A DNA stretch of 64,000 bases from Deltaproteobacteria bacterium (GTDB lineage: Bacteria; BMS3Abin14). Below the pieces are notes generated by a model that saw nothing but the letters and a program-made list of their open reading frames with translations, did not search any database and was not told the origin of the DNA. Both the position numbers and the translations under genes were made by a program. The stretch is from assembly GCA_013151915.1 (NCBI GenBank), contig JAADHJ010000006.1:65404-129403 (forward strand), read 5' to 3'. Positions 11,041 to 59,937 of this stretch are shown one piece after another. How positions within the stretch are numbered: the stretch's first letter is position 1; each line of letters starts with the position of its first letter.

Positions 11041-11084
11041 AAGAACATTGGATCTGACCAGAAAACAGAGAAGGAAATGACGCC

Positions 11085-12380
11085 ATGTGGAAAATGCTGT
11101 TAACCATCCTCGCGGTTAACGTTCTGGCCACGGCCCCCATTAATGTTTACGCCCTGGAACAGGCGGCCCCCGTCGGAACCGTCGATTTCCTTCCCGAGGG
11201 GTCGGCGGCGCCGCTTTTTAAAGCAACCGACCATTCAGGCCGGACGATCGACCTTGCAGATTTTCTCGGCAGGGTGCCGGTTGTCCTCAACTTCTGGTCC
11301 ATTTACTGTGACTCCTGTGTGGAAGAGATGCTCTCTCTGCAGAAACTCGAGGACAAATACGGCGGAAAGAACCTTGCAATCCTGGCAATAAACGAGGATA
11401 TCAATATATCCCAGGATAGAATCCGAAGATTTCTTGAACGCCTGGAACGCTTCCAAGGCAAGGTAACCTACCCCATCCTTTTCGACCAGGATTCAGCCAT
11501 CTTCAACTCATACCGGGGTAATCTTCTCCCCACGCTTGTCCTAATAAACCGTGATGGAAAGATCGTCTCGACATTCAGGGGATACACCGCGGAAAGCGAG
11601 CCCGACACCCTGGCAACGATCGAAGGCCTCGTTTCCCCTGAAATCCGGGCCACACCGGAAAAACCACCCGCCGGGACGGCAAAGGTTCAGTTTTCATCCG
11701 TTGCCGGTATGGCATCCCTTTGCGGTTTTTATGATGGGGGAAAATGGAAGAAGAGCTTTACGGGAAATGACAGTTTCGGCCAGGAACTGGAACTGACAAG
11801 AGAACTGGCCAGGCGGGACGCTACAAGACAGACCATCCTTTATGCTCTTAACGCCCAGGGGATCAAGCTTTTCTCCAACAGGCCTTTGCGCGGCTGCATC
11901 GATGAGGCAGGGATCCATCTTAACCGCGACCCATTCGACACCGGAGATCCTGCATCCAACATCCTGAATCTCCTGAATTACTCGGATTTCTTCACCACCA
12001 CCAGTGAGCAGGAGAAGCTTGTAGGCAACACGTATTACGTCGCGAGGACCGTCAGAATAGACGTCGAGGCCCTGTCTAAGGAACTGGCCTCATCAGGATA
12101 CCTTTTCAGCCCCACGAGAATCGAGTTCACATATGTCAACATGACCCCATTGGACCGGAAAGAGTTTCTCCAGTCCCTCCTCAGTCAATCCAGGTTTATC
12201 GGCAACTTTGAAAACCCGGTAATCACACCCCATTCCACCTCGCAGGTGTTCGAGGTCTACACCTCATCACAGGAATTCGCCGATGAGATCCTGAGTATGG
12301 ATTTTTCGGACCTGCAGGTGTTCGTGGAACAGGTGACTCCATCGTCCCTGGAACTGGAGATCTGGAAAAAGGCGGAATAA
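11085..12380 (+). CDS. secreted TlpA/redoxin-like thiol-disulfide oxidoreductase fused to ~240-aa uncharacterised C-terminal domain
   Basis: Signal peptide; thioredoxin fold with WSIYCDSC (CxxC) and ALIN...; the C-terminal half has no recognisable motif. Confidence 0.65.
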   Translation: MWKMLLTILAVNVLATAPINVYALEQAAPVGTVDFLPEGSAAPLFKATDHSGRTIDLADFLGRVPVVLNFWSIYCDSCVEEMLSLQKLEDKYGGKNLAILAINEDINISQDRIRRFLERLERFQGKVTYPILFDQDSAIFNSYRGNLLPTLVLINRDGKIVSTFRGYTAESEPDTLATIEGLVSPEIRATPEKPPAGTAKVQFSSVAGMASLCGFYDGGKWKKSFTGNDSFGQELELTRELARRDATRQTILYALNAQGIKLFSNRPLRGCIDEAGIHLNRDPFDTGDPASNILNLLNYSDFFTTTSEQEKLVGNTYYVARTVRIDVEALSKELASSGYLFSPTRIEFTYVNMTPLDRKEFLQSLLSQSRFIGNFENPVITPHSTSQVFEVYTSSQEFADEILSMDFSDLQVFVEQVTPSSLELEIWKKAE

Positions 12381-43071: not shown

Positions 43072-44247
43072 TTATCTGCTGCAACCGTCTGAACAACAGT
43101 TGTCGGTCCCCGTCGGCGCTTTCCTGATGACACCCAGCCTATGAATCCATCTTTTTACCATCGTCGTCAGGGGGCGGATTGACAGTATCAGGAGGACAAC
43201 AGCTCCAGCAAATTGCAACCACCCTGGAATCACCTCCCCTGCCTGTCCTATCACCGCCTGCGGAGATATTCCTGCCAGACCGTAGATCTGATCCAGGAGC
43301 AGGCCCGCCAGAACGCTTACGGAAGCGATGACCGCCAGGTAGAGGACCGTAGCTCTTTTCCCGAGGAACCCGACAAGGACGGAAAGAGAGGCCAGGTTTG
43401 TTGCCGGACCGACCAGGAGAAAAACCAGTGCCGCGCCCGGGCTTACCCCCTTAAGCACCAGCGCCGCAGCGATGGGCGTCGAAGCGGTGGCGCAGATGTA
43501 AAGGGGGATACCTATCACGAGCATGATCAGCATGGACGACAGACCGCCGCCCAGATGTGATGAAAAAAGGTCCTCCGGAACAGCTGCGGTAATGATGCCT
43601 GCCAGCAGAAGTCCGATGAAGAACCAACCGGCAAGGTCACCCCAGAGTTCACTAAAGGAATAACGCATTCCTGTCCGAACCTTTTCGAAAAAAGAATGAT
43701 GATGACGGTGCTGCTCGGGGGGGCAGTTTTCGCCGTCGCAGCAGCCGTCCACCGGACATGCGGCATTGGCCTTTTCATCGGCAAGGGGATCTGGAGAGGC
43801 CATGAAGTTTTCGCTGATCCCCGCGATGAAAGCCGTAACGAATGCCACCAGGGGTCTGGCCACAGTCATGATGGGGTCAAGCAGAGCATAGCTGATGGCT
43901 ATGGAATCCACACCCGACTCAGGCGTTGAGATAAGAAAGGCCACCGTGGCGCCCCTGTTGGCTCCCTGTTTTCTCAGGGACGCCGCGGCCGGCAAAACAC
44001 CGCAGGAGCAAAGAGGGATGGGGATGCCGAAAAACGCAGCCTTGATAACGGGAAGAAACCGTCCCTTGCCCAGTTGTTTTGCCACGGTCTCGGGCGATAG
44101 AAACATCTTCAGCAATCCCGCGATGAGGATGCCGAACAGGACGTAAATGGCCGACGCCAGGAGGATATCCCAAGTCTCCGTGAGGACTGTCAAAAAACCG
44201 TGCAGTATGGCGAACATGAGATATCGTCTCCTTATCGAATACGGCAA
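43072..44247 (-). CDS. arsP: ArsP-family permease (DUF318) with Cys/His-rich cytoplasmic segments
   Basis: The conserved motif IPLCSCGVLP matches the ArsP TPFcSCS motif. There are 8+ TM segments, and a tail/loop with CPVDGCCDGENCPPEQHRHHH and GTDNCCSDGCSR. Confidence 0.7.
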   Translation of the reverse strand: MPYSIRRRYLMFAILHGFLTVLTETWDILLASAIYVLFGILIAGLLKMFLSPETVAKQLGKGRFLPVIKAAFFGIPIPLCSCGVLPAAASLRKQGANRGATVAFLISTPESGVDSIAISYALLDPIMTVARPLVAFVTAFIAGISENFMASPDPLADEKANAACPVDGCCDGENCPPEQHRHHHSFFEKVRTGMRYSFSELWGDLAGWFFIGLLLAGIITAAVPEDLFSSHLGGGLSSMLIMLVIGIPLYICATASTPIAAALVLKGVSPGAALVFLLVGPATNLASLSVLVGFLGKRATVLYLAVIASVSVLAGLLLDQIYGLAGISPQAVIGQAGEVIPGWLQFAGAVVLLILSIRPLTTMVKRWIHRLGVIRKAPTGTDNCCSDGCSR

Positions 44248-44256
44248 GCCCGGTGT

Positions 44257-44628
44257 TTATTCGCGAACGTGCTCCAGCGCCAGTTGGAGCATGTCCTCTA
44301 TATGTTCATCATTGAGACGGTAATATAGAATTGTGCCTTCTCTGCGGTTGGCCACCAGATTCAGTTGCCGCAAGAGCCGCAACTGGTGGCTGATGGCTGA
44401 TTCCGTGATCCCGAGGGTAGCCGCAATGTCGCACACACATATTTCTCCGGATTTGAGTGCACGCAGAATGTTAAGCCGTGTTGGATCCCCGAATGCTTTG
44501 AAGAATCGCGACAAATGCTCTACCTCGGCTGGATCCAGAGCTGACTTCCTCGCCCTCTCGATCCGGTCCTCATGGATAATCCGGCTGTCACAGCGATCTT
44601 CCCGATTGTTTATCATGGCGATCCTCAC
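44257..44628 (-). CDS. arsR: ArsR/SmtB family metalloregulator (CVC-type)
   Basis: HTH LSRFFKAFGDPTRLNILRAL and metal-binding ELCVCD-like GEICVCDIA. Confidence 0.85.
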   Translation of the reverse strand: MRIAMINNREDRCDSRIIHEDRIERARKSALDPAEVEHLSRFFKAFGDPTRLNILRALKSGEICVCDIAATLGITESAISHQLRLLRQLNLVANRREGTILYYRLNDEHIEDMLQLALEHVRE

Positions 44629-45861: not shown

Positions 45862-46395
45862 TCAACCCAGTACTTTAAGATACTCCAGCAGATCGTTCAT
45901 GTCTTCATCCGATATGTTCCACCTGGGCATGGTCCGGTCCATGGACTCTCCCGAGGGCTCGATGCCATCGCGAATAGCCTTTTTGATCCCCTCATCGGTG
46001 TATGCGGCCTCTTCTCCGTCGTCTGCCTCACCGTGATGCTTGCCTGAAATAAGCGAGGAATACCGGATGTCGCCCGGGATGTGCGTCCCCATCATCACCG
46101 GCAGGCCGCCCTTGCCGTCCGGACCATGGCAGTTGACGCAGGACCCCCCCATCATGCGGAGCCAGTGGGGCCCTCCCCGGAACCGGATTCTCTGTCCCTC
46201 GCCGTCGATTCCGAGATAGTAGATGCGCTCCCCGGCAGACGAGTATGACCCCTTGTCATAGACCCCCCCGGCCCCCCATCCTGAGAAGGAAGCCATATGC
46301 CTGCTCCCGGCGCCGTACAGACAGACCCCGGCGATTCCCAGGATCATCAGGCCGAGGCCCCACCACAGGGTCCGGCGGGATCTTTTATCGCTCAT
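45862..46395 (-). CDS. membrane-anchored mono-heme c-type cytochrome
   Basis: An N-terminal TM helix with a single CVNCH haem-binding motif. The start overlaps the SHOCT gene stop by 4 nt (ATGA). Confidence 0.65.
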   Translation of the reverse strand: MSDKRSRRTLWWGLGLMILGIAGVCLYGAGSRHMASFSGWGAGGVYDKGSYSSAGERIYYLGIDGEGQRIRFRGGPHWLRMMGGSCVNCHGPDGKGGLPVMMGTHIPGDIRYSSLISGKHHGEADDGEEAAYTDEGIKKAIRDGIEPSGESMDRTMPRWNISDEDMNDLLEYLKVLG

Positions 46396-46664
46396 CCTTC
46401 CCCCTCCAGGGTGCGCTTCCTCTGCTCGAACTCCTCGGTGTCGATCTCGCCCTTCGCGTACCGCTCCCTGAGGATCTCCATGGGATTCCGATCACGGGCC
46501 ATGGATCCGCCACCCTGCCCGGCGGCGATGCCTCCGCGTCCCGCGGTGAAATAACGGAAGATAAGTACGGCCCCCACGATAATGACGGCCCAGAAAAAGA
46601 TCATCATGATCATACCTCCCGCCCCCCACATTCCGTAGCCATGATTGCCCCATCCTCCCATCAT
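46392..46664 (-). CDS. SHOCT-domain small membrane protein
   Basis: A TM helix, then ILRERYAKGEIDTEEFEQRKRTL (SHOCT motif). An ATG at 46664 follows AAGGGAGGA. Confidence 0.7.
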   Translation of the reverse strand: MMGGWGNHGYGMWGAGGMIMMIFFWAVIIVGAVLIFRYFTAGRGGIAAGQGGGSMARDRNPMEILRERYAKGEIDTEEFEQRKRTLEGEG

Positions 46665-46863
46665 AACCCTGTCCTCCCTTGGTGCCTGTCGGGTGAACCC
46701 GATATGCAATCAAATATCCGGCGAAAAACGGATTCACATTATTGAACGCATTTCGCCCGTTTCGCAGTCCGTACAAGTATAACCGCGATTTTCCAAAATA
46801 CCATTCGAAGCCGGCTTTTCCACAAGCAAAAAAGATGGTAGGTACTGCGTGGTACGGATGGGT

Positions 46864-48888: not shown

Positions 48889-49956
48889 TCAATCCGCTGT
48901 CTTCCTGAGATTCAGAAGGTGCCGCCTTGCAGCCAAAGCTGCCTTCGCACCTTCTCCCGAAGCTATGATAATCCTCTTTCCGAAAGCGTCGGTAACGTCC
49001 CCGGCCGCAAAGAGCCCGGGACAGGACGTTGAGCAATCGGGGCCGATGGTGATCTCCCCGTTTTCGTTGAGTTCGACAATATCCGAAACCAGATGGGAGT
49101 TAGGCTGCAAGCCGATGGCAATGAATACGCCCCCGGCCGGCAGGTATAACGTCTCCTCCCCGGCTATCTTTCTGATCGTCAAACCGGACAATGCACTCTC
49201 GCCCTTAAAATCAACTACTTTGTATCCTTCGTACATGTTGAGGTTCTCGAATCTGCATATACGAGCCACAAGCGACGGATCAGCACTTAGTTTGCAGTCG
49301 GAGATGAGATTTATATTTTTGACGACGGTTCGCACTTTCTCAACGATCTGCACGGCCGAATTACCCCCCCCGATGATAGCGACATCTTCCCCTGTCACAA
49401 AGGAAAAATCCTGGATATTGCCGTAAAAGAGTCCTTTTCTCTGGAACTCCTCCTCACCGGGAACATCCAGTTTTCTCCTCGTCATACCGGTTGAAATGAT
49501 CAGGGTTTTTGCAAAATAGATCTTAAGCTCCGATGTAGTAACGTTGAAACCACCCTGGACGGTTTCGATCTTATCCGCTTCAGCGATCAGGTGGTCTATA
49601 TAGTGTGAGTGGAGCAACTGGCGCTGAAACTTTTCAGTCAGTTCAGGTCCCGTGATGAAGTCGAAACCCATGTAGTTCTCTACTTTCGTGCTGTCTATGG
49701 CCTGACCGCCGAGATCTTTAGCCAGCAGGAAGGCATCAATTTTAAGCGTGTCCGCATAGACAGCCGCCGTGAGCCCGGCGGGTCCGCCGCCGATAATAAT
49801 GAGATCGTAGGAAGTGCGGGGGAGTTCACATACCCTCTCCGCCAGGAATTTGTCCCTGCAGCCTTCGGAGCAGAAATAAAAGATCTTGTTGTCACATTCT
49901 GTTGTAAGAGCAGTTCTTTCGTCGATATCCATCTTGCATATGGGATCTTTTTTCAC
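48889..49956 (-). CDS. YHS/TRASH-domain fused to thioredoxin-reductase-like NAD(P)/FAD oxidoreductase
   Basis: The N-terminus has ICKMDIDERTALTTECDNKIFYFCSEGCRDKF, the same module as at the CopA N-terminus. This is followed by LIIIGGGPAGLTAAVY and the TrxR-like C-terminal GD motif FAAGDV. No CxxC redox pair is present. Starts at GTG. Confidence 0.65.
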   Translation of the reverse strand: MKKDPICKMDIDERTALTTECDNKIFYFCSEGCRDKFLAERVCELPRTSYDLIIIGGGPAGLTAAVYADTLKIDAFLLAKDLGGQAIDSTKVENYMGFDFITGPELTEKFQRQLLHSHYIDHLIAEADKIETVQGGFNVTTSELKIYFAKTLIISTGMTRRKLDVPGEEEFQRKGLFYGNIQDFSFVTGEDVAIIGGGNSAVQIVEKVRTVVKNINLISDCKLSADPSLVARICRFENLNMYEGYKVVDFKGESALSGLTIRKIAGEETLYLPAGGVFIAIGLQPNSHLVSDIVELNENGEITIGPDCSTSCPGLFAAGDVTDAFGKRIIIASGEGAKAALAARRHLLNLRKTAD

Positions 49957-49996
49957 TTACTCCCCTTTCGATTTGCGCGCCCCTCCGTGGGCGCGT

Positions 49997-51118
49997 TCAT
50001 AATGTTTTGGTGGGACGTTCGCATCTGCACCAGATGCACGTGCAGTTCAGGTGGTTGCAGCTCTCGTCCTTGACCCTGTTGACATAGTTTTTCCTGGCTT
50101 TGGGAAGAAGCAGGTGCTTTATACGGGAGCGGTTGTAATGGTGCATCAGGAATGTGTTGGAATCACCTTTGGCGAGCTTCCTCGTCAGGTACCTGTAACC
50201 CGCATGGCCGAGCTTCTCATACAGGAACCTGTTTATGAGAGAGGTCTCGAGCATGGGTGCCAGTTCATTTTTCCACAGGGCGTCGTAGCTGGTTTTCTCT
50301 ATGAGGCTCCTGGCGGCAAGACAGCCTGATGCGATCGAATACCTCATCCCGAACCCCCACAGACAATCCTGAAACCCAGCTGTCTCACCGATATAAAGCT
50401 TGCCGTTGCGAACCTGCGTGTCCCGCAGGAAAAAGTTACCGAAGCCCCCGAACTTCCTCTCGTTTCTGACGTCGGCATCCATTTTCGTGTTAAAAAAACG
50501 CATCATGTTATCAAAGTACTCCTCGCTCCTTCGATAATTTCGGTAAAGGACAGTGGCCATGGTCCCATAGCCCCCGTTTACAAGAAGGTAAGCGTAACCT
50601 TTGGGAGCGATATCATCATCAAGGACCACGACCGCCGTGTCTTCCATGGATGTGTCAAAGGTGATGCCCATGGCGATCACATCGGCCCCCTTCGGGCCGA
50701 TTCCCACTATGGCCGGCCCCGAAAGGTGATCCATGCCGTGTTCGAACAGAATCTCTGTGCCCAGCGCCTGGGCCTGTTCCTTCAGGCCCGTGTCGAGGGT
50801 GCCGGACATGGGTCCCCTTTTAACGAGGTAGAAACTGGGTTTTTCCGACTTTATGACAACAGGCTCCATCCCACGGGAATGGATGACTCCTCCAAAATAG
50901 GGTTCGCAGAGAAAGTTTATTTCGACACCCATATTTTTCAGCGTTTCGGTGACGTCGACATTCGAGCTCCAGTTTTCGAGCCCCTGAAAATCACCGCTCA
51001 ACCTGTGGCCGACATCCGGGGACTTCTCAAAAATCGTCACCGGGATACCGTGACGGCGCAGGACGATGGCGGCGACGAGTCCCGCTGGACCAGCGCCGAT
51101 TATTTTCACCGTGTTCAT
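49997..51118 (-). CDS. FAD-dependent oxidoreductase (geranylgeranyl-reductase-like fold) with Cys-rich C-terminal tail
   Basis: IIGAGPAGLVAAIVL dinucleotide motif. C-terminus CNHLNCTCIWCRCERP. Good RBS GGGAGGA. Confidence 0.6.
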   Translation of the reverse strand: MNTVKIIGAGPAGLVAAIVLRRHGIPVTIFEKSPDVGHRLSGDFQGLENWSSNVDVTETLKNMGVEINFLCEPYFGGVIHSRGMEPVVIKSEKPSFYLVKRGPMSGTLDTGLKEQAQALGTEILFEHGMDHLSGPAIVGIGPKGADVIAMGITFDTSMEDTAVVVLDDDIAPKGYAYLLVNGGYGTMATVLYRNYRRSEEYFDNMMRFFNTKMDADVRNERKFGGFGNFFLRDTQVRNGKLYIGETAGFQDCLWGFGMRYSIASGCLAARSLIEKTSYDALWKNELAPMLETSLINRFLYEKLGHAGYRYLTRKLAKGDSNTFLMHHYNRSRIKHLLLPKARKNYVNRVKDESCNHLNCTCIWCRCERPTKTL

Positions 51119-51204
51119 GGTCGCTGTCCTCCCCGCGCTTCACAAGTTTTTCGCCCCCCTGCATAATATCCGTACGTCTGTCCCCATTTCAAGTGCAAAC
51201 AACT

Positions 51205-51280
51205 AACGACCAGGGGGTCTTGCATTTATCCGGCGCCGTTTCCCTCGCCCGGCAATATCCGGCAACGGCCCCTGGTCGTT
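51205..51280 (-). other. long-stem hairpin (12-bp arms AACGACCAGGGG/CCCCTGGTCGTT, ~50-nt loop) between small membrane gene and flavoprotein genes
   Basis: Read directly. The inner loop contains the repeated CCGGC / ATCCGGC strings. Confidence 0.5.
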
Positions 51281-51307
51281 GAAAGCTGGTGTATGGAAAC
51301 TGAAATC

Positions 51308-51553
51308 TCACACGATCCTGTTGTAAACAACCCCGAATGAGTAGAGCAGAACAAAGCTTATGACAGCCGCCTCCACCATCCCCCCGATGATCCCGAGAGG
51401 GCTGAGGGAAAAGATCATGTGCCACTTCATCATCATCTCCACGGCTCCTCCGTATAGCCCGAGGTTGCCCAGAATTCCGAGGAGCAGCATCACGGCCGCT
51501 GAGACGACAGCGCTCGACACGCCAAGCGCCCGGGGATCCAGTTTTGCTCTCAT
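51308..51553 (-). CDS. small two-TM membrane protein (81 aa)
   Basis: Two hydrophobic helices. Strong RBS GAGGAGG upstream; 36 nt downstream of the copA stop. Confidence 0.55.
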   Translation of the reverse strand: MRAKLDPRALGVSSAVVSAAVMLLLGILGNLGLYGGAVEMMMKWHMIFSLSPLGIIGGMVEAAVISFVLLYSFGVVYNRIV

Positions 51554-54434: not shown

Positions 54435-54608
54435 TCAACCACAGCAGCCCCCGCCTTTTTTTGTGTGCTTAGCGGTGCTGTTATCGTCCCGGGCACTTGA
54501 TTCCGGATCATCTTCATGATGTGCGTGGCCGACGTTTCCGTGCCTGGGTCGGAATATCATGAATCCCAGAGCTAAAATTACCGCCAATCCTATCAGTTTC
54601 GAAACCAT
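54435..54608 (-). CDS. small membrane protein with His-rich region and C-terminal GGGCCG (57 aa)
   Basis: An ATG at 54608 follows GGAGGT. It has one TM helix, then HGNVGHAHHEDD and the terminal KKGGGCCG. It lies directly upstream of copA. Confidence 0.5.
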   Translation of the reverse strand: MVSKLIGLAVILALGFMIFRPRHGNVGHAHHEDDPESSARDDNSTAKHTKKGGGCCG

Positions 54609-54903
54609 CCTTAACCTCCATTTCTGTATCGGGTGCAAAAGAGACCCGATATCCATTTGATGCCCCTGACTTGCCCCTTGATCCGATTAAAGCGAACGAT
54701 CTGTCTGTGCCCATGCATGTCAATCTCCCTCTTGATATTATATCAGCTCTGCTCTCATGGTTAAAATATACCCTACCCCCCTAGGGTATGTAAAGGAGTT
54801 TTTTCATCCCCTTGTGCTGAAAGACTATTCCTGGACACATATCGGAACGGTTGATATCCTTGTATCCGGCATAGGCACCGGCGGCATCGAGACGGAGAAG
54901 CTG

Positions 54904-55761: not shown

Positions 55762-57165
55762 TCACACTATCAGCCGATCCCACGTCCCATACTTTTCCTT
55801 AATGGTACCGCGAGGAATGCACAGCAAGATCAGCAGAACGCCGACGATTGTATTGTTCAATATTGTGCTGGTGCCGGCCCCTGCAAGCAGCCAGGGTGAA
55901 GCGATGACCCACGCACTGAATAAAACATTGATAAAACGGCCGGCCCTGATAATTTCAGCCATGGCTATCACTGCGACAGTTACAATGAGCGCGCCAAAAA
56001 TATTGTTGCTGACCGCTGCTCTACCCATCGTGCCAAGCACCACAGGCGAAAGCATGAGCCATAGGCCGAAGGCCGCGCTGAGAAGCAGCGTCCATGGCAT
56101 CGTGACTCCCCAGGACATTGCGGGAAAGTGCTCTTTAACGGGGGTCCCGTACAATGGCGTTCTTTCGTCCGTGTTCTCCAGGTTCAGCGTCCCCCCGATC
56201 CAGAATGTCCGCCACAGAGAATTTCCTTCACGCACGCTCTGCTTGAGAAACTGCCCCATCGCGACCAGCTCATCCACGGTGAACGGGATCATCAGGAGCA
56301 TGAGCAATGCGGTTATCAGACATAACGTGCACCAGTAACCCACAACAACCGGCTGCAGGATCACCAGCACGATGCTCGTGACGCCGAGCGGCACGACGAG
56401 GATGAAAAAGCCTGTCACCATCCACGGCATGGAACGCCAGCGCGTCTTGCCGCCCATCCAGGCCATGAGCATCTCCAGGGTATAGGCCACCGCGCCAAGT
56501 CCGGCATCGGAGATAGGAAATTTCCGCGACACGTCTGAAGTCAACACGTTCACAGTGCCCTGTCCAAAAAGCGGTTCCCAGATCGTGGGGATAAAACCCA
56601 ACTGGAATGCCGCGAGATAACGGGAAATCAACCAGCCGGCAAACGCGATGACGATCATCGGCGCACGCTGATGCCAGGTTGATGGATTGTAGCTCCAGCC
56701 TGGTGGAATTTCCGGGCCTGATTTGGCCATCTCCATATGATGCGCCATGCCGGGCATCGAGGGCACGAGGACTGAAAACGCAATGGCTAACGTGCCGATC
56801 AAGGTGTCGTTCGCAAACGCAGCCGGGCTTTTGGTCCAGAATACAAGGGGTGCGAACTGAAGCCATATCCCCACCAGGGCAACACTCCAGCGCCCCCAGG
56901 AATCAAATTGCGGGAACATCGCCAACAGGGCAAACAAGGCAAGCAACAGGCCACTGACCACATCGCTCCAGATCATTGCCGGTTTCACATAGCCGAAGGT
57001 AAACGGGCTGGTGATCAGCCAGAAACCAAGTCCCACGATAGTAAAGTTGGTCCATAACCACCGGCGGCGCATGTTCAGCGTCATATCCGTCATGTTTCCG
57101 TGGCTGTCCATGGAATCCATATTATGTTCACCGTGCTTCAAGGTGTGTTCGTGTTCCGATCTCAT
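55762..57165 (-). CDS. polytopic membrane protein (SPW-repeat-like / possible VKOR-like, CxxC in membrane)
   Basis: At least 10 predicted TM helices, repeated (S/T)SP(W/F) segments, and a membrane-embedded CTLC. Confidence 0.4.
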   Translation of the reverse strand: MRSEHEHTLKHGEHNMDSMDSHGNMTDMTLNMRRRWLWTNFTIVGLGFWLITSPFTFGYVKPAMIWSDVVSGLLLALFALLAMFPQFDSWGRWSVALVGIWLQFAPLVFWTKSPAAFANDTLIGTLAIAFSVLVPSMPGMAHHMEMAKSGPEIPPGWSYNPSTWHQRAPMIVIAFAGWLISRYLAAFQLGFIPTIWEPLFGQGTVNVLTSDVSRKFPISDAGLGAVAYTLEMLMAWMGGKTRWRSMPWMVTGFFILVVPLGVTSIVLVILQPVVVGYWCTLCLITALLMLLMIPFTVDELVAMGQFLKQSVREGNSLWRTFWIGGTLNLENTDERTPLYGTPVKEHFPAMSWGVTMPWTLLLSAAFGLWLMLSPVVLGTMGRAAVSNNIFGALIVTVAVIAMAEIIRAGRFINVLFSAWVIASPWLLAGAGTSTILNNTIVGVLLILLCIPRGTIKEKYGTWDRLIV

Positions 57166-58520: not shown

Positions 58521-59252
58521 ATGGAAAAGTTCGCATGGCTTATCTGGTCGCTGAGTTTCCTTTCCTTTTGGGGCGTTGTATATTTTACGAGGCCTTCAAC
58601 GAGGAAGCAGATGCTGCGAATGAGTCTGTTCACAGCCCCCCTGGGGCTCACCGAGCCGCTGTTCGTGCCGGCATACTGGAACCCCCCGACCCTGTTCGGC
58701 CTGGCCCAGAGAACCGGGTTCGATATCGAGAGCCTTATTTTCTGCTTTTCGATAGGAGGTATCGCGACGGTCCTTTATGAGATGGTGGTGCCGACGCGGC
58801 ATGTCCCGATGCACAAGGACGAAAGACACAACCCTCACCACCGGTTCCATCTGCTCGCACTGATAAGCCCGGTCATCGTCTTCATTCTGCTAGCGCTGAC
58901 CACTTCCTGGAACGCCATCTACCCCGGCATCCTGGCCATGATCGTAGGAGCGATGGCGTCTCTGTGGTGCCGGCCGGACCTCAAGGGCAAGATCTGGGTG
59001 GGCGGAGGAATCTTCCTGGTTCTCTATTTTCTGTTTTTCCAGCTTCTGGATCTGGCGTTTCCGACCTACGTTGAAAGATACTGGACACTTGATGCCCTTT
59101 CGGGGATTATAGTGTTGGGAATCCCGATAGAAGAATACCTTTTTGCTTTCACCTTCGGCCTGATGTGGTCCAGTTTGTATGAACACCTCTCGTGGCAGAA
59201 AATAATACCCGCTCACCGGGGGACACATTCACCAAACAACAAAGACTCATGA
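58521..59252 (+). CDS. lycopene-cyclase-domain-like integral membrane protein
   Basis: 7 hydrophobic helices and two P-x-EE-like segments (GLTEPLF, GIPIEEYLFAF), reminiscent of CrtYcd-domain proteins. Confidence 0.4.
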   Translation: MEKFAWLIWSLSFLSFWGVVYFTRPSTRKQMLRMSLFTAPLGLTEPLFVPAYWNPPTLFGLAQRTGFDIESLIFCFSIGGIATVLYEMVVPTRHVPMHKDERHNPHHRFHLLALISPVIVFILLALTTSWNAIYPGILAMIVGAMASLWCRPDLKGKIWVGGGIFLVLYFLFFQLLDLAFPTYVERYWTLDALSGIIVLGIPIEEYLFAFTFGLMWSSLYEHLSWQKIIPAHRGTHSPNNKDS

Positions 59253-59280: not shown

Positions 59281-59937
59281 ATGGGGGAACAGGATATGAG
59301 CCAGAACTACGCATATGGGAAATGGCCCCTGGTTGTGGGAATGATCATTGTAGCCCTTTTCTTTATAACCAGGTACATCCCTATAAAAACTAAATTCGAA
59401 AAACGCAGCGGCGGTGTGTTGTACACCTTTATCATCGCTCTTTTTGCCGAAATGTATGGTTTCCCGCTTACTATCTATATATTATCAACACAGTTCGGAC
59501 TCAAGATCCCTTTGACACACTCATATGGTCACCTGTCCGCTTATCTCCTCACCTTTTTGGGAATCAAGATAGCTTACGGCTGGGCATTAGTGATGATCGT
59601 GAGTAACGTTGTCATTGTTTTTGGCGTGATATGGATCACCAAAGGGTGGAGCCAGGTTTATCATTCGGATGGCAAACTCGTAACAACGGGAATCTATTCC
59701 AGAATGCGTCATCCCCAATACAGCGGGATCATCCTGGTTGCCATAGGTTTTTTAATCCAATGGCCGACACTAATTACCCTGTTCCTGTTCCCCTTTCTTA
59801 TAGTGATGTATTACAGGCTCGCCATGAGGGAAGAACACGATGTCGAGGAAGTATACGGACCGGAATATATCGACTATAAGAAAAATGTACCGGCCTTTAT
59901 TCCTCGTCTTAAGCTTGGTCTCTTGACAGCAAAATAA
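59281..59937 (+). CDS. isoprenylcysteine carboxyl methyltransferase (ICMT/PEMT) family membrane methyltransferase
   Basis: The C-terminal GIYSRMRHPQYSGIIL...EE...L matches the ICMT SAM-binding signature. Confidence 0.75.
   Translation: MGEQDMSQNYAYGKWPLVVGMIIVALFFITRYIPIKTKFEKRSGGVLYTFIIALFAEMYGFPLTIYILSTQFGLKIPLTHSYGHLSAYLLTFLGIKIAYGWALVMIVSNVVIVFGVIWITKGWSQVYHSDGKLVTTGIYSRMRHPQYSGIILVAIGFLIQWPTLITLFLFPFLIVMYYRLAMREEHDVEEVYGPEYIDYKKNVPAFIPRLKLGLLTAK

Follow-up and report, generated by a model that had tools for sequence, protein, structure and literature searches.

A YHS-Headed Thioredoxin Reductase-Like Flavoprotein Associated with Bacterial Copper Efflux Gene Clusters

A stretch of 64,000 nucleotides (nt) from a Deltaproteobacteria (Desulfobacterota-type) metagenome-assembled genome (GenBank assembly GCA_013151915.1, contig JAADHJ010000006.1, positions 65,404 to 129,403 of the forward strand; hereafter the window) encodes, between two copper P-type ATPases, a protein of 355 amino acids (aa) in which an N-terminal YHS/TRASH head is fused to a flavoprotein body of the thioredoxin reductase (TrxR)/AhpF type. 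This YHS-flavoprotein is a conserved accessory component of copper efflux gene clusters, and probably serves silver efflux too. Its link to copper export is real and general, while reductase chemistry is plausible from its architecture and gene context. On these two grounds we give a probability of about 35% to the reading that the flavoprotein, driven by reduced nicotinamide adenine dinucleotide (phosphate) (NAD(P)H), reduces copper at its YHS head or hands it to the pumps. An earlier account of the locus made from its letters alone (the sequence-only reading) had proposed a metal reductase feeding the exporters; its description of the locus is confirmed and its interpretation is partly supported.

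Architecture of the YHS-Flavoprotein

Domain calls were taken from Pfam, and family-level scores from NCBIfam models were read against their curated cutoffs. The Pfam YHS model (PF04945) matches residues 3–40 of the 355-aa protein with 32.1 bits, above its gathering cutoff of 30.3 (E-value 1.2e-7), which bears out the YHS/TRASH call of the sequence-only reading. The cysteine ligand pattern expected for the domain, C-x19-22-C-x3-C, is found as C7-x21-C29-x3-C33 and is accompanied by D4. Across 101 aligned family sequences from two clades M9, F28, C29, S30, G32, C33 and F37 are invariant, and D4 and C7 occur in all 97 that are not truncated. The likeness to the head of the neighbouring CopA that had been noticed by eye amounts to 66% identity over 38 aa (E-value 3e-12). 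Two further cysteines of the window head, C21 and C43, are conserved in the Nitrospirota/Desulfobacterota clade only, their positions being F/Y and E/K in the other clade (Y or absent in locus L004). A head acting as a four- to five-cysteine iron or iron-sulfur (rubredoxin-like) carrier was ruled out by this clade-specific distribution, which leaves a standard, CopA-like YHS domain with three cysteines (plus Asp/Met). We regard the head as a candidate copper-binding site.

The body is matched by Pfam Pyr_redox_2 (6.9e-30). Its closest solved structure in a PDB search is the C-terminal TrxR-like module of AhpF (E-value 3.4e-48, 33% identity). A first AlphaFold2 (AF2) model built with 17 near-identical sequences had a predicted local distance difference test (pLDDT) score of 60 and was discarded; the model from the 101-sequence, two-clade alignment reached a pLDDT of 86 and a predicted template modelling score (pTM) of 0.80, and its top Foldseek matches are AhpF and TrxR structures (probability 1.0). 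The flavoprotein call made earlier from the letters thus stands. The NCBIfam scores are 222.9 bits for AhpF (TIGR03140; cutoff 502.9), with the match covering AhpF residues 210–513, and 221 bits for thioredoxin-disulfide reductase (TRX_reduct, TIGR01292; cutoff 343.45). By these scores the body is related to AhpF and TrxB without belonging to either family.

The CPHC disulfide motif of AhpF aligns with G179-N-I-Q182 of the 355-aa protein, and a cysteine is found at either CxxC position in 0/101 family members, so that the absence of the disulfide pointed out in the sequence-only reading extends to the whole alignment. Y/H178, Q/H182, D183, Q113, H118, H122, K327 and R328 are conserved in both clades. 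The motifs for binding of flavin adenine dinucleotide (FAD) and NAD(P)H are intact (IIGGGPAG, GGGNSA and FAAGD). The HRRxxxR motif that binds the 2′-phosphate of NADPH is lost; it reads L-I-S-D-C-K-L in the window protein and S-K-G-K in the second clade. Given this loss and its clade-dependent replacement, the electron donor is left here as NAD(P)H; a specificity for NADH suggested by D220 was dropped, D220 not being family-wide. The 355-aa protein is therefore a cytoplasmic TrxR/AhpF-fold FAD protein with a second dinucleotide motif and without a redox-active CxxC. Lacking both CxxC and HRRxxxR, it cannot carry out canonical thioredoxin reduction.

The only cysteines conserved family-wide are those of the YHS head and C308, which is present also in AhpF. 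This distribution is what would be expected if the head cysteines (C29-x3-C33, with C7) formed a redox pair reduced by the flavin that keeps the protein's own metal-site cysteines, or those of the pumps, in the reduced state, in a relay like that of AhpF minus one step; AhpF, the closest solved relative, does use a tethered N-terminal acceptor domain containing cysteines. Such a role in thiol maintenance is nonetheless improbable: the disulfide that is reduced by the flavin of TrxR and AhpF is an integral part of their NAD domain, and Met9 and Asp4, both invariant, speak for metal ligation and not for disulfide chemistry. We know of no case of a treble-clef metal site acting as a flavin-proximal disulfide.

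Family Distribution and Coupling of Head Gain to Disulfide Loss

A database search with the window protein gives about 8,000 matching proteins. The 120 top matches are all 68–99% identical to it; for 111 of them YHS and Pyr_redox_2 are both among the precomputed domains, while the other nine are 344-aa entries with no YHS called, and in the three of these that were aligned the sequence begins within the head. Another large clade, identical in architecture and retrieved with a 47%-identical Omnitrophota member, is found in Omnitrophota, Bacteroidales, Carboxylicivirga, Chlorobi, Caldiserica, Eisenbacteria and Sedimentisphaerales. Since the architecture recurs in thousands of database proteins, the fusion is not due to chance. 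Most entries retrieved with the window protein are unnamed; the names borne by the others are “YHS domain-containing protein”, “FAD-dependent oxidoreductase”, “thioredoxin-disulfide reductase”, “alkyl hydroperoxide reductase subunit F” and “NADH dehydrogenase”, and their sources are Nitrospirota, Thermodesulfovibrionia and Deltaproteobacteria. The sequence-only reading had presented the fusion as a non-standard part of a candidate undescribed module: the fusion is undescribed as far as full-text literature searches go, in which no paper on a YHS-flavoprotein fusion was found; it is not rare, being a large family hidden under generic names.

A profile search of 1.84 billion representatives clustered at 50% identity resolved the full-length family into five clusters (562–365 bits) plus fragments. 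All complete members have the YHS head and no CxxC, and every match that lacks both CxxC and YHS is an N-terminally truncated fragment. Matches at or below 319 bits begin at profile position ~45–50 and are thus headless; where the site can be read they keep a CATC or CSTC motif, with one distant exception (P0500, 251 bits). An apparent split arrangement of separate TrxR and YHS proteins in locus L009 proved to be a normal CATC TrxR beside a fusion of YHS to an ArsP permease. Sequenced plasmids yielded no family member, all matches there being ordinary trxB or ahpF products with less than 37% identity. The family is thus discrete, strongly conserved and spread over several phyla, and in every complete member examined the gain of YHS coincides with the loss of CxxC. 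This coupling argues that the head took the place of the disulfide in the catalytic path.

Organization of the cop Locus

The features of the locus are listed in Table 1. The ORF coordinates reproduce the gene order of the sequence-only reading (copA, the gene of a protein with two transmembrane (TM) segments, that of a Cys-tailed FAD protein, that of the YHS-flavoprotein, copB) and extend it by a SHOCT gene and a c-type cytochrome gene, which overlap by 4 nt. From copA to the SHOCT gene the successive intergenic gaps are 36, 189, 40, 15 and 154 nt, the 15 nt given earlier for the last two genes of the group being exactly the distance from the stop codon of the 355-aa gene to the copB ATG. In the window the junctions of the 355-aa gene with the 373-aa gene and with copB contain no terminator-like hairpin, and co-transcription is likely. 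The promoter-like sequence in the 189-nt gap, a consensus match alone, marks a possible internal start of this unit. Three intergenic regions were checked for inverted-repeat operators, and none was found.

Table 1. Features of the cop locus in the window (positions are those of the window; residue numbers refer to the encoded protein).
Feature	Position	Strand	Basis or remark
copA, P1B-1 Cu(I)/Ag(I) ATPase, 909 aa	51590–54319	−	Pfam, NCBIfam, motifs
Small membrane protein, 81 aa, two hydrophobic segments	51308–51553	−	36 nt downstream of copA
Sigma-70-like promoter match	51163–51192	−	189-nt gap upstream of 373-aa gene; 10/12 consensus
FAD-dependent oxidoreductase, 373 aa, distantly GG-reductase/PHBH-fold-like	49997–51118	−	Pfam, N-terminal part
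Cys-rich tail C-x4-C-x-C-x-W-C-x-C of 373-aa protein, residues 354–366	50021–50059	−	Conserved in neighbourhood homologues
YHS + TrxR/AhpF-like flavoprotein, 355 aa	48889–49956	−	Pfam YHS + Pyr_redox_2
YHS/TRASH head of 355-aa protein, residues 3–40	49837–49950	−	D4-P5-x-C7-x-M9 ... F28-C29-S30-x-G32-C33 ... F37
CxxC replacement site of 355-aa protein, F177-Y-G-N-I-Q-D183	49408–49428	−	Aligned to AhpF Y-C-P-H-C-D
copB, P1B-3-type ATPase, 669 aa	46864–48873	−	Begins 15 nt after flavoprotein gene
SHOCT-domain membrane protein	46392–46709	−	Pfam SHOCT 1.4e-10; downstream of copB
c-type cytochrome	45862–46395	−	Pfam Cytochrom_C 2.8e-8; downstream of copB

The two ATPases differ in their metal-binding equipment. 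CopA carries an N-terminal YHS domain (40.3 bits), HMA, E1-E2_ATPase and Hydrolase domains by Pfam, which calls a single HMA where the CopZ-type models of NCBIfam match two stretches; its score against ATPase-IB1_Cu is 637 bits (cutoff 397). The P1B-1 features are present, with CPC in TM4, YN in TM5, MxxSS in TM6 (MAFSSVS) and the cytosolic YHS and HMA domains. CopB has E1-E2_ATPase and Hydrolase domains, scores 604 bits against ATPase-IB1_Cu and displays the P1B-3 features CPH (VITCPHALG), YN and MSxST (MSLSTVV). Its N-terminus is rich in His (seven within the first 45 residues); Pfam finds no HMA or YHS domain in it, and the pump is without a Cys metal-binding domain. The motif assignment of CopA follows the Argüello classification.

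The 81-aa protein encoded after copA has no Pfam match (zero hits); the only NCBIfam signal is a sub-threshold one to holin_4 (27 bits, cutoff 70). It is found with 85% identity and in the same position in loci L161–L163, and partly in L083. Its identification with a recurrent neighbour cluster of DUF5676-like proteins (“small90”) was ruled out, the match of 0.9 bits not being significant. Just upstream of copA a 73-aa ORF (54435–54656, minus strand) encodes a protein with one TM segment, a His-rich sequence HGNVGHAHHEDD and GGGCCG at the C-terminus; Pfam gives no match for it, and a 62-aa gene stands at the same position in L161–L163.

Several other genes of the window deserve mention. A 467-aa membrane protein (55762–57165, minus strand) has SPW repeats fused to a VKOR (vitamin K epoxide reductase) domain and may belong to the same metal/thiol-stress island, since it is syntenic in L161. 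A Lycopene_cyc-domain membrane protein (58521–59252, plus strand) and an ICMT/PEMT-like methyltransferase (59281–59937, plus strand) are encoded side by side; in L083, L092 and L095 this pair is found again, placed between CsoR-CopA and the YHS-flavoprotein. An ArsP_1-family permease (43072–44628, minus strand) with a Cys/His-rich loop (CPVDGCCDGENCPPEQHRHHH) and a Cys-rich C-terminus is encoded a few kb downstream of the cop genes, beside the gene of an ArsR-family regulator. No homologues of CsoR, P-II, DUF302 or Met-rich proteins were found in the window.

Gene Neighbourhoods of Related Loci

The context set comprised seven genome loci and 80 metagenome loci (numbered with the prefix L), plus six long contigs with precomputed Pfam domains; neighbours were annotated by tblastn with the window proteins and by de novo clustering. 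P1B ATPases were found by tblastn on 33 of 88 loci, so that the association of YHS-flavoproteins with these pumps, for which the sequence-only reading had called for a survey, is a recurrent one. By a strict motif count P1B ATPases make up 4% of the neighbour ORFs (25 of 619) and are distributed over 22 of 73 loci; for randomly chosen genes about 0.1% would be expected if a genome has, as we estimate, two to four such pumps. The commonest neighbour is an ICMT/PEMT-like methyltransferase (22 loci), followed by Met-rich secreted proteins (15), the 373-aa flavoprotein family (12), SHOCT proteins (11), a DUF5676-like small membrane protein (10), P-II (9), DUF302 (8) and CsoR (6). ABC1-type kinases, small YHS-only proteins, YHS-histidine kinases and a membrane histidine kinase are also recurrent. 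The latter (~335 aa, HisKA + HATPase with a multi-TM N-terminus) is encoded directly downstream and on the same strand in L003, L081, L094, L101 and L119.

An 88%-identical relative (L161–L163) is fully syntenic with the window, its genes being those of CsoR, the 62-aa protein, CopA, the 81-aa protein, the 373-aa flavoprotein and the YHS-flavoprotein, followed by copB fragments; the SHOCT and cytochrome genes, recurrent in related neighbourhoods, are syntenic as a pair in L161. The copB downstream in L161 (~11084–12224) is split into two Hydrolase-domain fragments of ~196 aa each, and in L161–L163 the pump has apparently decayed while the flavoprotein gene is intact. A 6-Mb Carboxylicivirga contig groups CusA/CusB, P-II, AraC, SHOCT, YHS-flavoprotein, DUF3347, P1B ATPase and TRASH/HMBD/HMA proteins next to an integrase, and three further long contigs show the same mixture of genes. 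Neighbourhoods of this copper/silver type, with Cus RND systems and HMBD/HMA proteins nearby, were seen in Bacteroidota, Omnitrophota and other lineages. In all, a comparison of gene context over about 95 loci places the YHS-flavoprotein in copper/silver-resistance gene clusters of several phyla, which upholds the proposed link to copper export.

This setting also bears on a MerA-like role, in which a soft metal would be reduced to the element (e.g., Ag(I) to Ag(0), Cu(I) to Cu(0) or Hg(II) to Hg(0)). Occurrence of the gene beside Cus/Sil-type RND systems and HMBD/HMA proteins would suit it, as would the parallel architecture of a metal-binding head on a pyridine-nucleotide flavoprotein. It is extremely unlikely all the same: the MerA model (TIGR02053) gives only 51.2 bits against a cutoff of 454.45, neither the CxxxxC near the flavin nor the C-terminal Cys pair of MerA is conserved in the family alignment, and no mer genes were seen in the surveyed neighbourhoods.

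The pump type that directly adjoins the flavoprotein gene is mostly the His-rich CopB with a CPH motif. It is the immediate neighbour in the window (15 nt), L113 (4-nt overlap), L098 (14 nt), L153 (15 nt) and L002 (144 nt), and is separated by one gene in L100. Only in L005 does a CPC pump take this place; pumps of this type, mostly with YHS, HMA or HMBD heads of their own, are usually found 0.6–5 kb from the flavoprotein gene. By these distances the gene is often translationally coupled to its immediate neighbours, mostly CopB-type pumps. The sequence-only reading, guided by the similar heads, had thought of metal hand-off with CopA; in this respect it needs correction, since the tight coupling is to the His-rich CPH CopB and not to the YHS-bearing CopA.

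YHS domains are found fused to other proteins in the same neighbourhoods, namely histidine kinases, a PtsP/enzyme-I-like protein (at its C-terminus) and a LOG/Rossmann-type protein (L098, 8541–9416; L108, 2368–3240; L116, 2610–3279; L113, 930–2843; L006, 8527–9240), as well as the ArsP_1 permease of L009 (3386–4552). With such partners, YHS looks like a metal-input module of general use in these lineages.

The 373-aa Flavoprotein

The gene preceding that of the YHS-flavoprotein encodes a second FAD-dependent oxidoreductase. Its Pfam matches (NAD_binding_8, FAD_binding_3 and DAO) cover the N-terminal Rossmann part only, and a PDB sequence search gave matches confined to the first ~50 residues, where the Rossmann motif is located. 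About 2,075 homologues were found in the database, mostly unnamed or called “NAD(P)/FAD-dependent oxidoreductase” or “flavin-dependent dehydrogenase”. The C-terminus reads SCNHLNCTCIWCRCERPTKTL; its Cys-rich tail is present in 71 of the 120 closest database homologues, is absent from more distant ones, and is a candidate metal-thiolate site.

The two flavoproteins had been described as a pair. The partnership is not obligate, as the 373-aa family stands beside the YHS-flavoprotein in only 12 of 88 loci and also occurs alone: one homologue is encoded directly upstream of an HMBD-type P1B ATPase with no YHS-flavoprotein nearby, another adjoins ArsP, ArsR and ACR3 genes, and a third is in an unrelated setting. 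Genes of GalT/HIT-like and EgtD-like (histidine N-methyltransferase-type) proteins, named from sequence, flank the 373-aa homologue in L082, L085, L088 and L090, where the group stands between the YHS-flavoprotein and CopA; they hint at a small-molecule (thiol-histidine?) pathway. We describe the 373-aa protein, from its predicted domains and setting, as a second metal-island flavoprotein with a Cys-rich appendage and a facultative partner of the YHS-flavoprotein; it would act as a second, facultative metal-tethered flavoenzyme of the same islands.

A relationship to geranylgeranyl (GG) reductases, which the sequence-only reading had raised, was not borne out at the level of family membership (GG-red-SF, TIGR02032: 53.3 bits, cutoff 158.8). 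The weak similarity, together with the recurrence nearby of ICMT/PEMT-like methyltransferases, a Lycopene_cyc-domain protein and ABC1/UbiB-like kinases, could be taken to indicate a role in lipid or isoprenoid-quinone metabolism, with GG-reductase-type chemistry supplied by a TrxR-like electron donor and both genes hitch-hiking in metal islands. This is very unlikely in view of the score far under the cutoff, of the small number of loci in which the two flavoproteins stand together and of the Cys-rich, metal-type appendages that both of them carry; moreover, ICMT-like proteins are known from czc-type metal clusters too (CzcN).

Proposed Function

In the mechanism that we propose NAD(P)H would reduce the flavin of the 355-aa protein, and the YHS head, which is on a tether as are the N-terminal acceptor domain of AhpF and the NmerA domain of MerA, would replace the lost disulfide as electron acceptor. 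One-electron steps would convert Cu(II) bound to the head into Cu(I), or keep the bound copper reduced, and the pumps, chiefly the His-rich CopB-type ATPase, would then receive it as Cu(I). Copper reduction or hand-over is preferred because the gain of the head is tied to the loss of the disulfide, because the head is tethered as in AhpF and MerA, and because the partner pumps lack a Cys domain.

Several points weigh against this mechanism. Electron transfer from the flavin to the YHS head is an assumption. About two thirds of the related loci have no ATPase on the available DNA, many of them on short contigs, and L086, L132, L137, L159 and L160 are without one despite 8 kb of flank. HRRxxxR is gone, and what replaces it differs between the clades (SD versus SKGK). 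Thiols and quinols readily reduce cytoplasmic Cu(II) (PMC7558416), and a dedicated reductase may for this reason be unnecessary, especially in anaerobes like those considered here. The sole enzyme-fused YHS domain that has been studied experimentally acts as a copper sensor (PMC4626032), and YHS-histidine-kinase fusions are present in the very neighbourhoods of the flavoprotein gene.

The last two points lead to the main rival explanation, a flavoenzyme switched by copper, in which YHS would be a regulatory copper sensor for an NAD(P)H-dependent flavin activity on a non-metal substrate, such as reduction of quinone, O2 or ferredoxin, limiting copper damage or supporting repair of iron-sulfur centres. 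In the Mycobacterium phlei adenylyl cyclase the YHS domain activates the enzyme in response to copper (PMC4626032), the YHS domains of the neighbourhoods sit on histidine kinases, PtsP-like, LOG-like and ArsP proteins as well, and TrxR-fold enzymes without CxxC do exist, namely the TrxR-type ferredoxin-NADP reductases that are among the more distant PDB relatives. A regulatory add-on would, however, be expected on some CxxC-bearing enzymes too, whereas CxxC loss and YHS gain always coincide; the gene already lies within CsoR-type copper-regulated clusters; and its tight coupling to CopB pumps devoid of a Cys domain fits trafficking better. A copper-switched enzyme is thus possible rather than probable.

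A narrower form of copper reduction and hand-over can be stated, tentatively and with considerable doubt: the YHS-flavoprotein might be an NAD(P)H-driven enzyme dedicated to reducing Cu(II) in the cytoplasm and to donating Cu(I) (a “reductive metallochaperone”); it would be the soluble partner so far missing for the His-rich CopB (P1B-3) pumps. To our knowledge no chaperone and no cysteine metal-binding domain have been described for CopB-type pumps, whose substrate valence was long disputed. The P1B-3 pumps were first classed as Cu(II) exporters and in fact transport Cu(I); the reduction step that precedes P1B export is stressed to be poorly understood, and specific cytoplasmic cupric reductases had been presumed absent, CcoG being the sole specific bacterial cupric reductase named (PMC7558416). 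A reductive metallochaperone, if real, would account for the transport of Cu(I) by pumps formerly believed to handle Cu(II), and would amount to a reductase-coupled efflux module spread over many anaerobic phyla. In any case this large, very conserved and unstudied family offers a concrete and easily purified candidate for the questions of copper reduction and CopB supply, and its widespread mis-annotation as thioredoxin-disulfide reductase or AhpF would be corrected. Experimental follow-up is deserved, as the protein should express easily and the assays are simple.

Comparison with Known Systems

The 355-aa protein resembles AhpF in its two-Rossmann FAD/NAD fold, the GGGNS motif, the Cys of the D/K-C-x-T-S motif and an N-terminal acceptor domain on a linker. 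It departs from it by the change of the CPHC disulfide to GNIQ and by a 40-residue YHS head in place of the double thioredoxin-fold N-terminus with its CxxC. With TrxB (TIGR01292) it shares fold and body length, and its nearest YHS-less relatives are TrxR-like proteins with CATC or CSTC; it differs by having neither CxxC nor HRRxxxR and by a score below the family cutoff. MerA with its NmerA (HMA) domain provides a works-like analogy, a soft-metal domain tethered to a pyridine-nucleotide flavoprotein encoded in a metal-resistance cluster. MerA belongs to another branch of the superfamily, has an HMA rather than a YHS head and needs flavin-proximal and C-terminal Cys pairs, whereas the 355-aa protein is of the TrxR/AhpF branch, has neither of these redox cysteine pairs and is found in cop/cus rather than mer clusters.

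The head is of the same domain type as the YHS/TRASH heads of P1B ATPases. The ligands proposed for the M. phlei adenylyl cyclase YHS domain, an Asp and three Cys (PMC4626032), correspond to D4, C7, C29 and C33 of the 355-aa protein. Both are YHS domains fused to an enzyme, and a response to copper has been shown for that of the cyclase; the latter is C-terminal and regulatory, whereas the head of the flavoprotein is N-terminal and its gain coincides with the loss of the catalytic disulfide.

The Cu(II)-reducing activities reviewed for bacteria are those of CcoG, the unspecific NDH-2, uncharacterised cell-level activities of Lactococcus lactis and a Pseudomonas sp., and CupA in vitro, the Fe-S-bearing CopZ of Archaeoglobus fulgidus being the only archaeal cupric reductase in the review (PMC7558416). 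CcoG and the N-terminal part of CopZ (CopZ-NT) work with Fe-S clusters, and no electron donor is known for either, while the NDH-2 activity is unspecific and mediated by quinols (PMC7558416). The activity proposed for the 355-aa protein would be the same, a reduction of Cu(II) to Cu(I) on the cytoplasmic side that feeds P1B ATPases; CcoG, NDH-2 and the Fe-S CopZ are set apart from it, as described, by having neither a YHS head nor the TrxR fold. NDH-2 is a Pyr_redox_2-type flavoprotein, like the 355-aa protein. The A. fulgidus CopZ resembles it in another respect, the fusion of a redox module to a copper-chaperone module.

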